From a virus (Duplodnaviria; Caudoviricetes), in IMG/VR virus record IMGVR_UViG_3300020045_006575, positions 1-40,077 of that record: a DNA stretch of 40,077 bases; one strand, written 5' to 3'. The notes beneath the pieces were generated by a model. The model was not told where the DNA came from. It worked only from the letters and a program-made list of their open reading frames with translations, and ran no database searches. Of the stretch, positions 2,714-14,810 are shown piece by piece. Numbering within the stretch: the stretch's first letter is position 1; each line of letters begins with the position of its first letter. The translations under genes were made by a program, and so were the position numbers.

Positions 2714-3589
<876 letters not shown>

Positions 3590-5143: not shown

Positions 5144-5192
5144 TTTTCCACAAGCCGCCGCCATTTACTTTACAAAGGCCGCCTAGTAATAT
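5144..5192 (+). promoter_or_regulatory. Rightward promoter TTTACT-N17-TAATAT, likely leaderless transcript
   Basis: -35 at 5164-5169, -10 at 5187-5192, ATG at 5199; DnaA-like TTTTCCACA 5144-5152. Confidence 0.6.
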
Positions 5193-5198
5193 ACTACC

Positions 5199-5321
5199 AT
5201 GAATAAGGACATCGCCAAAGAAGCTAGCAAGGGTGGCAAGGCCATTTTAGAAAAGTACGGACGGGACTATTTCAGTAAGCTCGGAAAGAAAGGTCGAAAG
5301 AAACAAAGCAAAAAAAAATGA
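5199..5321 (+). CDS. KGG-motif small basic protein (40 aa, not in ORF track)
   Basis: MNKDIAKEASKGGKAILEKYGRDYFSKLGKKGRKKQSKKK*; ATGA overlap with 5318. Confidence 0.75.
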   Translation: MNKDIAKEASKGGKAILEKYGRDYFSKLGKKGRKKQSKKK

Positions 5322-7552: not shown

Positions 7553-7601
7553 AGTTGTCCACAGATATCCCCTTTGTAAGACGTATGGGTGGTGATATAA
7601 T
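7553..7601 (+). promoter_or_regulatory. Replication-operon promoter (TTGTAA-N16-TATAAT, extended TG) with DnaA-box-like site
   Basis: AGTTGTCCACAG 7553-7564; TGATATAAT 7593-7601. Confidence 0.7.
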
Positions 7602-7607
7602 TACAGT

Positions 7608-7708
7608 GCTCGAAAGAGCCAACGAACGTCCTGCTCTATAAGAGTTTTAAGAATCTCTGCACAGAGCGGGCAATCGAAAGGTTGACCGTTCGTTGCGGAG
7701 ATTTTTTT
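7608..7708 (+). ncRNA. Cis-regulatory leader RNA: terminator/antiterminator switch before the initiator gene
   Basis: Two GAAA-tetraloop hairpins; mutually exclusive folds, one a long hairpin ending in U7 that buries GGAG before ATG 7709. Confidence 0.7.
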
Positions 7709-8548
7709 ATGAGCAAAAAAAGAATGATCGACACGAGAATATGGTACGACTCATGGATTCGTACTCTTAATGCTCTTGATCGTTACCTATTTTTGTATCT
7801 ATTGACAAACGACAAGTGCACGTTTTGTGGTATTTACGAGTGCCCTCTCGACATAATGGCTGTTGACACAGGGATAGAAAAAGACGAACTCCAGAAAGTT
7901 ATGCTCCCACGCCTAAGACCGAAGGTTGAGTATTGTGATGGATGGGTTTATTTAATCAATTTCAAAAAACACCACGTAAACGAGTCGCCTAACGCAGAGA
8001 AGGGGTATTATTCTGCATTAAGTGAGGTTCCTAGCCATATTTTAAACAAATTTGGCTTAATTAACAAGCCCCTTGAAGCCCCCTCGAGCCCCTTGGAGGG
8101 TCTTGGGTACTCTTCTTCTGCTTCTGCTCTTACTTTTAAGAAGAGAACACCACTTGCTCCAAAGTCGTCGCAAGATGGTTTAATCACTAAAAAAATGAAG
8201 AAGAACAAACTAGGGAGCTACCGTGAGGATCGGGACAGTGAGGCGTATGAGGAAGTGGTTGACCTTGAGACAGGTGAGAAGAAGATCGAAGCACCGAAAA
8301 CCGATCTAAGTGAGAAATACTGGGAGATGATTCATTGGGCCGAAAACCGCCGTGGCTCCAAGTTTTTAAAAGAATCAATCAAAAAACAATTCAAAGCGTT
8401 TAAAATCGCCAGAGAGAATAATATAAGCTCAAGTATGCTCCAAGCGCGATGGGTTGATTTTGAGAAAATAAAGTGGCGACAGGAAAACGGATGGGATTTT
8501 ATGGACATTGTTCTAAACTTTAATAAAAAACATGATCGAAATATCTAA
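7709..8548 (+). CDS. Phage replication initiator / replisome organizer
   Basis: N-terminal RMIDTRIWYD...RYLFLYLLTN...GIYE HTH-type domain; internal iteron-like repeats; directly upstream of the helicase. Confidence 0.75.
   Translation: MSKKRMIDTRIWYDSWIRTLNALDRYLFLYLLTNDKCTFCGIYECPLDIMAVDTGIEKDELQKVMLPRLRPKVEYCDGWVYLINFKKHHVNESPNAEKGYYSALSEVPSHILNKFGLINKPLEAPSSPLEGLGYSSSASALTFKKRTPLAPKSSQDGLITKKMKKNKLGSYREDRDSEAYEEVVDLETGEKKIEAPKTDLSEKYWEMIHWAENRRGSKFLKESIKKQFKAFKIARENNISSSMLQARWVDFEKIKWRQENGWDFMDIVLNFNKKHDRNI
8066..8140 (+). repeat. Putative origin iterons inside the initiator gene
   Basis: AGCCCC at 8067, 8077 and 8087 (10-bp phase) followed by TCTTCT/TCTGCT repeats. Confidence 0.55.
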
Positions 8549-9440
8549 ATTCATACAAGAACTCGAGAAGGAAATAACCGAACTCGGCGCGGCTACCCTC
8601 AAAGAGGAGCAGTTGCTTCGCTTACAGGAAGCGGCGGCCAAGTACGACGGTGAAGACAAACTGATCTCCTCCTTTGAGGTCATGGAACGGATGAAAAATA
8701 GGCCCGAGGAGCAAAAGATACTTTCTGGGTACTCTGGTCTCGATGCCATACTAGGCGGATTTCGCTTAAAACAGCTCGTGGTGGTGTCTGCGGCCACTAA
8801 GTCGGGCAAGACATCGTTTTGCATCGAGATGACCTCTAGGATGTCAAATTTGAACCCTGTATGGTTTCCGTTTGAGGAGGGAGCCGAGGAACTGATACAG
8901 AAATTTATTGATCGCAACGAACAACCCCCCTTGTTTTATACCCCCGAAACAATGTCTGGCAACACGTTATTGTGGATCGAAAAAAAGATCATTGAAGCCA
9001 GAGCAAAATTTGATAGTCGCATCGTTTTCATTGACCACCTCCACTTCATCATCCCCCTCACTGAAGACCGCCAAGATTTAGCAATCGGTCAAGCAATGCG
9101 CGAATTAAAACGCATGGCGAAACAGTGGGACATCGTTGTTGTCCTTATCGCGCATCTCAAAAAAACAAAAGTTGATATACAACCAACCCTTGAAGATTTG
9201 CGCGATTCATCTTTTGTGGCACAGGAGGCCGATACTGTTCTCATGCTTTACCGAGAAAATAAACGAGAGAATGGTGAAGTAATTATCACCGACAACGTGA
9301 ATGTTTCAGTGCAGGCAAACCGTCGGACTGGTAAGACAGGTAACGTAAAAATGGTGTATACTAATGGTAAATTCGAGGAGGGAGAATGGAAGCAGGATGA
9401 AATCGCGGCACACAACGATCGGGTAAACAAAAGCTGGTAA
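8532..9440 (+). CDS. DnaB-like replicative helicase (SF4 C-terminal domain)
   Basis: Walker A AATKSGKT, FIDHLH, IAHLKK, LRDSSFVAQEADTV, NRRTGKTG. Confidence 0.92.
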   Translation: MIEISKFIQELEKEITELGAATLKEEQLLRLQEAAAKYDGEDKLISSFEVMERMKNRPEEQKILSGYSGLDAILGGFRLKQLVVVSAATKSGKTSFCIEMTSRMSNLNPVWFPFEEGAEELIQKFIDRNEQPPLFYTPETMSGNTLLWIEKKIIEARAKFDSRIVFIDHLHFIIPLTEDRQDLAIGQAMRELKRMAKQWDIVVVLIAHLKKTKVDIQPTLEDLRDSSFVAQEADTVLMLYRENKRENGEVIITDNVNVSVQANRRTGKTGNVKMVYTNGKFEEGEWKQDEIAAHNDRVNKSW

Positions 9441-9729: not shown

Positions 9730-9757
9730 TTGAATCCCTCCCCCACAGGTATATAAT
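9730..9757 (+). promoter_or_regulatory. Promoter TTGAAT-N16-TATAAT for the packaging operon
   Basis: -35 at 9730-9735, -10 at 9752-9757. Confidence 0.65.
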
Positions 9758-9763
9758 TCTTAC

Positions 9764-9897
9764 AGGTAATATGTGGGGTTTCTCTAAATTAAATAAACAC
9801 CTTTCAAATAAGACTTTGTTCTCACGCTCCGCCAAATCAGACTCGTACTCTGTGGCAAACCATGCTTTGTTCTTTCAAAAACCCCACATACTTACCT
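9764..9897 (+). ncRNA. Candidate leader RNA: 18-bp closing stem around a loop of about 97 nt
   Basis: AGGTAATATGTGGGGTTT 9764-9781 pairs AAACCCCACATA(C)TTACCT 9879-9897; starts at the predicted TSS. Confidence 0.6.
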
Positions 9898-9908
9898 ACT
9901 AATTTTTT

Positions 9909-10100
9909 ATGAATCAAGAATACGAAATAAACTGGTCACGGGTATCCATTTACGCAATTGTTGCTATTTTACTCGGTGTGACCGCCTACCAGCTATGGCC
10001 TAGAACGCAAGATTTGCCACCTACAAGCGATCAAACACCGATTCCCTACCATAACAACGAATGGGACGGCTACGACTGTCCTGCGTGTGATAAATTGTAA
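9909..10100 (+). CDS. Small TM protein with C-terminal CxxC
   Basis: One TM helix; YDCPACD. Confidence 0.65.
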   Translation: MNQEYEINWSRVSIYAIVAILLGVTAYQLWPRTQDLPPTSDQTPIPYHNNEWDGYDCPACDKL

Positions 10101-12851: not shown

Positions 12852-12944
12852 TGTTGATAAATTCTTCTCATGATTGTGGTATAATAATTGCATAGCCTAA
12901 CCGAACAACGGCGGCACTCCTCATAGGGGTGTCGCTATTTTTAT
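12852..12944 (+). promoter_or_regulatory. Late promoter (TGGTATAAT) with DnaA-like box and terminator-like leader hairpin
   Basis: TGTTGATAA 12852-12860; -10 at 12880-12885; GGCGGCACTCCT/AGGGGTGTCGCT then ATTTTT before ATG 12945. Confidence 0.65.
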
Positions 12945-14810
12945 ATGTCACTACTCGATGGCTTCTTTAGCCTCTCAAGCTCGGTAAATGCGGTAAAAGA
13001 AAAGGACCAAACAGATGGACCTATTGGTTCGTTTTTACCGGAACTCGATATAGACATGGGGGATGAAGAACTCATTGATCTTAAGCGTGGATGGGTAAAA
13101 CAGTGGGAACCGTATGCGAAAGCAATCGATAAAATACAAACTGATAATGAAAACTATTGGCTTGGACAGCAATATAACGCTTCAAATGAGGGTAGACCGC
13201 TCGTCGATAACCTCATTTTTGAGTCATTGGAGACATTCTTACCTATTGCCACACGACCAAAAGCCGACCCGACAGTTGAATCACTAAGCGGAGAAGCAGG
13301 GAATGTTATCGCAAATCGGGTGCGGCAGATGCTCATATACGTCACTGACATCATTGCCTACAATCTAAAAGTCAAACAAGTAGCCCGTTATTGGGCGTTA
13401 TACATGCTTGGTGCGATGAAAGTAGGCTGGTCAATGAAGGAAAACGATATAACATGCGTTGCCATTCGACCGCAGAAGCTCATTTTAGACCACAAAGCGA
13501 CTATCAATGAGGGTGAATATGATGGGTATTACATCGGTGAACAGCTTGAGGACATGGCTTCTGATCTTGTTTTGCGGTTCCCAAAGAAAGAGAAGTTCAT
13601 AAGTGACAAAGTAAAAGGAAAGATGGGGACGAAGGTTCAGTATGTGATGTGGACGACAGATGAATATATGTTTTGGACACTCGATGATGAGGTCCTCGCA
13701 AAGACAAAGAACCCGCACTGGAATTATGAGACTGAACAACTCGCGCCGATGGATCAATTCGGGAATGTTCCATCTAATCCCGATGGCACACCAGTGACAC
13801 AAAAAATACCAGGGAAAAACCATTTCAATCGGCCAAAGAAACCATACGTTTTCCTTTCAGTATTCAACCTCGGGAAACAACCACATGATGATACTAATGT
13901 CGTAGCACAGAATCTTCCATTACAGGATTTAATAAATAAGCGACTGTTGCAGATTGATAAAAACGCTGACAATGCAAACGGTGGACTAGCTGTCTCTGGT
14001 GATGCGTTCACTGTAGATCAGGCGAAGAAGGCTGGAGACGCAAAGCGAAAAGGTGGCGTTATATACGTTCCCACTGGGCCTGTTACGAACGCAGTTGTAG
14101 AACTTACCGGTTCGCCATTACCGGCATTTGTGTACGAATCCCTCCTCGATTACCGTAACGAGTTACGAAATATCTTCGGTACACGAGGCTCGACGCCGCA
14201 AGGAACAGTGAACGAACAGACCGTCCGAGGGAAGGTTATCATCAAAGGTCAAGACTCTGATCGTATTGGTGGTGGTATTTCAACCTATCTTGAGCAATTT
14301 TCAGACAATGTATTTAATTGGTTCGTGCAACTGATGTATGTGTACTATGACGAACCACATGTAGCTTCTGTTCTCGGTGCGGAACGGGCACAGGAGTATA
14401 TCTCTCTTACGTCTTCTGAATTAGGTAAAGCAAAACTCCTTGTCGGAGTTAAGGAAGGATCAATGATCCCCCATGACCCAGTTACCAAACGAAATGAAGC
14501 TGTCGAGCTTTGGGCCGCACAAGCTATTGACCCCATTACCTTATTCGACCGACTGGAATTTCCCAATCCACGGGAGTCTGCGAAGCAGTTGTTTCTTTGG
14601 AAAGCTAACCCGATCGCATTATTCCCCGATCTCCTGGCCGCACAGCAACAACAAATGGCTCAACAGCAGGCACAACAGCAACAGCAGATAGCGACACAGC
14701 AACAAGAGCAACAAAAGGTCGAGCAACAGAAAGCCCAAGGGGCGCAGCACGCGAAGATGCAAGGTGCGGTACTCCAGGGGCTGATTAAAAGCACACAGAT
14801 TAAGAAATAA
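12945..14810 (+). CDS. Portal protein
   Basis: 621 aa after TerL; NLIFESLETFLP, PYVFLS, LQDLINKRLLQI; Gln-rich C-terminal helix as in P22/SU10-type portals. Confidence 0.88.
   Translation: MSLLDGFFSLSSSVNAVKEKDQTDGPIGSFLPELDIDMGDEELIDLKRGWVKQWEPYAKAIDKIQTDNENYWLGQQYNASNEGRPLVDNLIFESLETFLPIATRPKADPTVESLSGEAGNVIANRVRQMLIYVTDIIAYNLKVKQVARYWALYMLGAMKVGWSMKENDITCVAIRPQKLILDHKATINEGEYDGYYIGEQLEDMASDLVLRFPKKEKFISDKVKGKMGTKVQYVMWTTDEYMFWTLDDEVLAKTKNPHWNYETEQLAPMDQFGNVPSNPDGTPVTQKIPGKNHFNRPKKPYVFLSVFNLGKQPHDDTNVVAQNLPLQDLINKRLLQIDKNADNANGGLAVSGDAFTVDQAKKAGDAKRKGGVIYVPTGPVTNAVVELTGSPLPAFVYESLLDYRNELRNIFGTRGSTPQGTVNEQTVRGKVIIKGQDSDRIGGGISTYLEQFSDNVFNWFVQLMYVYYDEPHVASVLGAERAQEYISLTSSELGKAKLLVGVKEGSMIPHDPVTKRNEAVELWAAQAIDPITLFDRLEFPNPRESAKQLFLWKANPIALFPDLLAAQQQQMAQQQAQQQQQIATQQQEQQKVEQQKAQGAQHAKMQGAVLQGLIKSTQIKK

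Follow-up and report, generated by a model that had tools for sequence, protein, structure and literature searches.

A candidate two-state leader RNA upstream of the replication operon in a clade of tailed phages lacking a recognisable integrase

Introduction

How replication is limited in phages of small-celled uncultured hosts, when neither an integrase nor a repressor can be recognised, is the question raised by the locus described here. The window, i.e. the whole stretch of DNA that was analysed, comprises the 40,077 nucleotides of the tailed-phage record IMGVR_UViG_3300020045_006575. A preliminary description placed at 7593..7711 an RNA that would gate the replication initiator (rep) and the helicase in the manner of plasmid attenuators. 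Judged from its sequence and that of its relatives, the leader is real and likely regulatory, and it belongs to a so far uncatalogued family that accompanies the replication operon in a phage clade. As its mode of action we favour transcription attenuation of the rep-helicase operon, a model to which we assign a probability of about one half.

Results

Genome and replication genes

The 40-kb record has no end repeats and contains terminase, portal, capsid and tail genes together with NinB/NinG-like and HNH genes. The record may be incomplete, since its first bases lie within a peptidase gene and its last in a glycine-rich stretch. Profile searches, the controls of which worked, returned no integrase (PF00589) in the window or in five of five relatives, in agreement with the earlier remark that none was in view, and no resolvase (PF00239) in the window. 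No partition or repressor family was found among the window ORFs scanned. On the minus strand at 2940-3589 a DUF6948 gene is followed by a GS-repeat ORF that overlaps its end. Three sequencing runs share a small part of the window, mainly the HNH gene and 40 bases at the start of rep, and leave the leader uncovered. Among the sequencing runs listed, none of RNA contained this DNA.

PHROG and Pfam profiles identified the two genes behind the leader as a replication initiator and a helicase, as had been claimed. The elements of the locus are as follows.

7555..7563, plus strand: 9-mer upstream of the promoter, which we take to be DnaA-box-like; similar boxes precede other promoters of this phage and many rep promoters of the relatives
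7574..7601, plus strand: sigma-70-type promoter (-35 at 7574-79, TG at 7593-94, -10 at 7596-7601; 10/12 consensus, best in the region)
7606..7641, plus strand: possible 11-codon GTG uORF over segment A, doubtful (GTG 4 nt past the -10; no ATG there)
7608..7619, plus strand: predicted 5'-terminal GAAA hairpin (folding); its 3' strand could alternatively pair with 7633-37 in the terminator fold
7620..7637, plus strand: segment A (A1 7620-28, A2 7630-37), putative antiterminator strand (pairing and masking predictions)
7638..7648, plus strand: AU-rich linker, of which 7641-44 pairs with 7655-58 in fold 1
7649..7661, plus strand: segment B, 5' arm of the predicted terminator stem (folding, hairpin-plus-U scan)
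7663..7695, plus strand: segment A' (A2' 7663-70, A1' 7687-95), its two parts flanking the apical GAAA hairpin at 7671-84 (folding)
7694..7708, plus strand: segment B' with GGAG 7697-7700 and the U7 tract (7702-08), which together would act as an intrinsic terminator (folding)
7709..8548, plus strand: replication initiator with replisome-organizer/DnaD-like N-terminus, 279 aa (PHROG 6251, E 1e-10; PHROG 1701, E 6e-9)
8532..9440, plus strand: DnaB-like helicase, C-terminal domain (PHROG 19, E 5e-39; PF03796, E 4e-29), overlapping the rep stop

Phage matches of the initiator carry the annotations replication protein or replisome organizer, and its matches in plasmid collections are DnaD-domain or unnamed proteins with at most 37% identity. 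No iteron array was found in rep, except for one short two-copy repeat.

The leader promoter (TTGTAA-16-TATAAT with a TG extension) is strong and lies only 100 nt upstream of the hairpin. Transcription is predicted to start at G7608, because the ATG found in relatives mostly lies 6 nt past the -10. DnaA-box-like 8-9-mers occur at window positions 1522, 5095, 5144, 7555, 9722 and 12853, shortly upstream of most promoter-like sites, and many relatives likewise have such sites near promoters; genome-wide they show no excess over shuffles at 1 mismatch (25 vs 19.7).

Further promoter-like sites of the window deserve mention. On the minus strand at 1530-1420, a DnaA-box-like site and a promoter are followed by a short terminator hairpin with a U tract about 45 nt past the start, possibly a small RNA, in which 5'-to-loop complementarity is weak. 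At 12890-12947 a hairpin (-19.6 kcal/mol) and a U run abut the ATG of the portal gene behind a promoter-like site. A second promoter (TATAAT 9752-57) at 9730-9911 heads the genes toward terminase; here the 5'-most 18 nt of the leader are almost perfectly complementary to 9879-97, a U run separates this pairing from the ATG at 9909 (z -4.44), and a 43-codon uORF (9771-9902) stops 6 nt before that ATG.

The leader can adopt two folds

All helices proposed in the preliminary description were located in the sequence. In fold 1, A1 pairs with A1' (7620-28 with 7687-95) in 9/9 Watson-Crick pairs and A2 with A2' (7630-37 with 7663-70) in seven Watson-Crick pairs and one G-U pair, and a fourth helix (7641-44 with 7655-58, 5.8 kcal/mol) ties up the 5' arm of the terminator. 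Fold 2 is a long hairpin (7649-7706), in which A' forms the upper stem, and the U7 tract at 7702-7708 directly abuts the rep ATG at 7709. The apical hairpin 7671-7684 is present in both folds. The folding energy of 7593-7711 (z -4.77) and that of fold 1, 7608-7697 (z -4.47), were each reached by 0/200 shuffles. The long hairpin amounts to -32.1 kcal/mol on the plus strand versus -16.0 on the minus strand and G-U pairs occur in four helices, so it is read as a structure of the plus-strand RNA.

When folding was followed by RNA length, fold 1 (-35.8 kcal/mol) was predicted to dominate from length 7668 to 7698 and the terminator fold to take over from about 7701. At 7700-7701, with the U tract expected to be still inside the polymerase, the energies of both folds differ by less than 1 kcal/mol. 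With either A1 or A2 masked, the terminator stem was predicted to form with P=1.0 at 7700, and the refolding barrier from fold 1 to the terminator was estimated at about 17 kcal/mol along a pseudoknot-free path. At the level of prediction, folding by length and masking support a two-state leader with an antiterminator-like and a terminator-like form. The earlier claim that the folds are mutually exclusive holds for the upper stem and fails for the basal 11 bp (7649-59 with 7696-7706), which share no bases with the two main helices of fold 1 as read from the sequence. Once the fourth helix opens, the basal stem could coexist with these helices as a pseudoknot.

Pairing of the 5' part with the hairpin, taken in the window alone, is moderately significant, being matched by 5/200 dinucleotide shuffles and 6/100 base shuffles, and the weight therefore rests on the family. 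These shuffles are what could be said for regarding fold 1 as incidental and the element as merely a terminator-like hairpin. We consider this extremely unlikely, since across the family the 5' parts pair with their own hairpins in excess of swapped ones and two relatives show compensatory changes (both below), and since a strong promoter 100 nt upstream would simply be silenced.

The GGAG at 7697-7700 had been taken for a ribosome-binding site buried by the terminator. Shine-Dalgarno (SD)-like motifs precede only 4/38 window genes, against a background of 8%, and are thus not used by this phage; they precede 6/85 rep loci. The GGAG is probably coincidental and no ribosome site.

A family of leaders before rep

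The view that the leader is undescribed was borne out by Rfam, which gave no match at gathering score in the window (one chance match, E 3.1) or in 24 related loci (18 + 6). A literature search, thin on subscription journals, likewise found no description of the element.

Relatives of rep were collected from at least 114 loci (1 + 28 + 80 of 92 + 5), and removal of duplicates and of loci with short flanks left 85 including the window. A U tract together with a hairpin at least as stable as -20 kcal/mol, at most 60 nt from rep, was present in 33/85 rep loci: in 29 of the 53 with an upstream gap of at least 90 nt, leaving 24/53 that have the gap and not the pattern, and in 4 of the 32 without such a gap. 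Within the window it precedes 3/38 genes, rep being one of the three. Among other loci, 14/51 have a strong hairpin further upstream, about ten of them of A-linker-B-A'-B'-U design by eye.

Where genes are inserted before rep, the leader often stays at the start of the operon (L070/L075 vs L073; L021, L025, L048 and L068; small genes). In a second class of rep leader the long hairpin lacks a U tract, and in many cases an A-rich stretch comes next (L015, L099, L112, L023, L101, L104, L022, L007 and L062, the last with the hairpin 115 nt before rep). L119, L122 and about 15 near-identical prophage-like records carry a conserved inverted repeat with 48-nt spacing, which a pattern scan brought up and which is unrelated to the leader.

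Scanning viral contigs with a DNA pattern of the window leader gave 0 matches, and an A1...A1' pattern gave 40 matches, none leader-like on inspection; in these scans and in the leader alignments, nothing closely related to the leader of the window was seen. A helicase scan for further loci gave 0. A second rep scan returned 37 loci with 10 new records, in which a leader-like stretch was seen by eye in L183 and perhaps L186; all second-scan loci were kept out of the family counts.

For pairing analyses a set of 31 leaders was used. It consists of the 32 leaders with a called promoter, minus seven with a doubtful promoter or hairpin (L016, L019, L064, L080, L081, L097 and a false L021 match), plus six operon-start leaders added by eye; the promoter of L073 was reset by hand. 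The Reps behind these leaders share 34-88% N-terminal identity, and the leaders themselves are mostly unalignable with one another. The plus strand folds better in 30/33 leaders.

Pairing between the 5' part and the hairpin

With its own 5' part, 23/31 leaders form at least 10 A:A' pairs, as compared with 27/248 swapped combinations. In the unpruned set, 5' pairing beats 95% of shuffles in 19/33 leaders. L058 and L087, which share the split three-way junction of the window, keep 21/21 pairs, of which four are changed on both sides, and these double changes are spread over A1:A1', B:B' and the apical stem; the comparison involves two sequences only and 22/500 shuffles score as high. The call for covariation in homologs is thus answered by four compensatory changes in this pair and by none on the window's own helices, which have no close relative. 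The leader closest in layout to that of the window is L110, in which the junction likewise follows a hairpin located at +1.

For the majority of relatives, A:A' and B:B' have no bases in common; antitermination in these would then be kinetic or topological. In 4/31 leaders A:A' is never part of the lowest-energy fold. In 27 leaders A' covers 218/350 unpaired versus 236/1166 paired hairpin bases (bases that are not independent of one another) and stays clear of the basal stem, at a median distance of 13 nt. In the window A' is mostly paired, covering 4/10 unpaired bases and lying 5 nt from the stem base. Same-strand complementarity of A to A' in loop and bulge is thus seen in relatives and weak in the window.

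Among L021, L025, L054 and L105 the AU-rich linker is the best-kept part. Counted by eye, L105 and L021 share 34/34 bases of linker and B and only about half of A and A', as one would expect of a specificity code. For 19 of 20 leaders chosen from the 31, the own A:hairpin partner is the best; the window nearly ties with L051. Net binding in trans with B:B' left intact was estimated at -3 kcal/mol or better for 28/31 own and 3/31 foreign combinations. For the window it is -0.1 kcal/mol, by an estimate that cannot model two-helix binding. Own-partner preference is equally expected of purely cis pairing and hence does not discriminate trans from cis.

The latter results bear on the possibility of a built-in throttle or a 5'-end lock that involves no trans-acting RNA. 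As a throttle, A:A' would set a fixed or polymerase-speed-dependent fraction of read-through; as a lock, A:A' and B:B' would coexist as a pseudoknot shielding the 5' end, and the regulator, if any, would be a protein such as Rep. The near-equal energies of the two folds at 7700-7701, the freedom of A:A' and B:B' from competition for bases in most relatives and the weak trans binding in the window are all compatible with it. It leaves unexplained, however, why, between L105 and L021, divergence is greater in the paired A and A' than in the unpaired linker, and why A' is placed in loop and bulge. The former contrast comes from few sequences and could reflect module exchange. On the whole, we regard a throttle or lock as unlikely.

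Leaderless uORFs

An ATG lies 4-9 nt past the -10 in 18 of the 32 leaders with a called promoter, among them those of the window's three closest reps (L111, L032 and L031; 65-66%). The frames starting there are open through the hairpin in 15/18 cases, compared with 2/36 off-frames, and most of these uORFs end no more than 7 nt from the rep ATG or run into it. The peptides are unrelated between leaders, and L105 and L021 use different reading frames across their shared linker. The leaders of L110, L004 and probably the window have a hairpin at their start in place of a leaderless uORF, and L004, L006, L107 and L110 keep the hairpin without any through-going uORF. The GTG uORF of the window is doubtful because its GTG lies 2 nt before the predicted start site. 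Elsewhere in the window, at 5164-5321, a promoter is followed exactly 6 nt past its -10 by the ATG of a leaderless 40-aa basic gene at 5199, which overlaps the next ORF; its product gave no Pfam match and contains repeats that we take to be KGG-like.

A ribosome could accordingly be thought to control the leader: translation of a leaderless uORF at +1, in the window from GTG 7606, would cover A and favour termination, and in relatives the uORF would run through the hairpin and couple translation of rep. The open frames and their ends close to rep, the ATG-type leaders of the three closest reps and the leaderless small gene at 5199 point in this direction. The window, however, has no ATG, and its GTG frame precedes the predicted start and stops at 7641; four relatives retain the hairpin with no through-going uORF, and the peptide is unconserved, with differing frames in L105 and L021. 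As the general explanation this is distinctly improbable, and in relatives the uORF may well belong to the mechanism instead of competing with it. An attenuator based on a leader peptide would have a conserved peptide or control codons, which were not found among the uORFs of the leaders. The conserved ligand-binding core of a metabolite riboswitch was not found: Rfam gave no match and the leaders are mostly unalignable.

Search for an antisense promoter

The preliminary description had invoked the antisense control of rep known from pT181/inc18 plasmids. A convergent antisense promoter scored above local shuffles in 0/22 leaders (the other 10/32 had doubtful calls and were excluded; weak promoters may escape a consensus scan), and the score in the window was 2.8 (p 0.83) versus 16.7 for the sense promoter. 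A counter-transcript from such a promoter would bind A and cause termination, thus giving plasmid-like copy control. The absence of an integrase from the window and five relatives would suit it, as would the best antisense -10-like site, which in 10/22 leaders occupies nt 20-37 of the leader, within the AU-rich linker. This site lacks a consistent -35, no partition genes appear among the window ORFs scanned, and Rep resembles phage replisome organizers. Both the logic and the class of target gene are those of pIP501 RNAIII/repR as described in PMC4981023, where the leader spans 329 bp as against 101 nt here. We judge a counter-transcript to be very unlikely, and assignment to the pT181/inc18 group fails on the negative promoter scan together with the non-plasmid Rep.

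Discussion

Proposed mechanism

In the attenuator that we favour, segment A would be the first to form pairs, its partner being the upper part of the hairpin downstream, and the polymerase would read through. If A were covered, the hairpin and U7 would form and transcription would stop just before the rep ATG. The signal that covers A would be the stopped leader RNA itself, or a piece of it cut in the AU-rich linker. Like the CI RNA of P4, the stopped RNA would present A' in loop and bulge to the A of new transcripts, and the result would be a genome-specific damping of replication or superinfection exclusion. That the leader RNA recognises itself is suggested by the position of A' in the loop and 3' bulge, by the preference for the own hairpin and by the divergence of A and A' between L105 and L021. 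By analogy with P4, this identity of the signal is plausible, with the odds somewhat against it. The window is the weakest case for the trans step in our models, A' being mostly paired and binding near zero.

Taken to its full extent, the model describes a clade of phages, apparently lacking integrases, in which one RNA would serve as attenuator, terminator and trans-acting inhibitor. Antitermination would be topological, with the 5' end looped around the 5' terminator arm, and terminated copies would recognise only the 5' end of their own genome via a fast-changing loop-and-bulge code. This combined version is a tentative proposal and rather doubtful as a whole.

Comparison with known systems

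In pT181 repC the antiterminator forms by default, a terminator lies before rep, and masking of the 5' part operates the switch. According to the account in PMC4981023, pIP501 RNAIII/repR works likewise, and a convergent promoter is a defining part of its control. The window leader, in contrast, is shorter, a Cop repressor was not seen, the initiator is of the phage replisome-organizer type, and A' of the relatives targets loop and bulge, not stem arms.

The closer analogy would be P4, in which CI RNA, derived from a leader on the same strand, pairs with complementary leader sites and thereby causes premature termination before the replication genes (as described in PMC4825925). The window leader resembles the P4 immunity leader (CI RNA, seqA/seqC) and Gifsy-1 IsrK in preceding replication genes, and its A and A' lie on one strand. 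Unlike P4, the present leader has no Rfam or sequence match, its single target is the 5' end of the transcript and the complementary part lies inside the terminator hairpin; moreover, the window is a head-tail phage and P4 a satellite, and trans action and processing are here a proposal only.

In IncFII tap and IncI repY, plasmid reps coupled to a leader peptide, the RNA targets the start of a small ORF, to which the following gene is coupled. These two and C4-icd resemble the ATG-type relatives. The C4 antisense RNA of P1/P7 is encoded in the operon that it represses, icd-ant (as outlined in PMC8198154). Here, by contrast, the replication operon is the target, the uORFs are leaderless (that of the window being missing or doubtful), and Rfam gave no match.

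Phages kept as plasmids are exemplified by extrachromosomal mycobacteriophage prophages with RepA or RNA-based origins, which are described as maintained by parABS (PMC7157519). No partition genes were seen in the window, and its RNA precedes rep and does not replace it as an RNA-based origin would.

Host and implications

Two of five matches for rep in genome collections were in Patescibacteria assemblies, one of them on a phage-like 39.8-kb contig with an integrase in 0 of 42 ORFs scanned (56 in total). Host-like contigs of two Patescibacteria genomes have SD-like motifs before 5/16, 3/15 and 4/11 ORFs and the phage contig before 1/29, all small counts. The anti-SD is reported absent in about half of Parcubacteria (summarised in PMC9297842). 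Given these rep matches, the lack of SD use by the phage and the anti-SD loss in Parcubacteria, a patescibacterial host seems probable. An integrase-less patescibacterial phage has been interpreted as lytic (10.1101/2024.03.08.584096). For the plasmid-like prophage suggested earlier the evidence is divided: the window gave no integrase, but neither did its scanned ORFs give a partition or repressor family, and end repeats are absent.

With regard to how such phages limit their replication, the leader offers a 100-nt handle that is independent of the host. If the combined model is true, phages of probably patescibacterial hosts would possess an RNA-only system of copy control and incompatibility with dozens of natural orthogonal pairs. 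Should the trans step fail, the leaders would still constitute an uncatalogued family of attenuators on phage replication operons; should it hold, they would embody an RNA-only code of immunity or incompatibility, and the 19/20 orthogonal pairs would be ready natural RNA switches.
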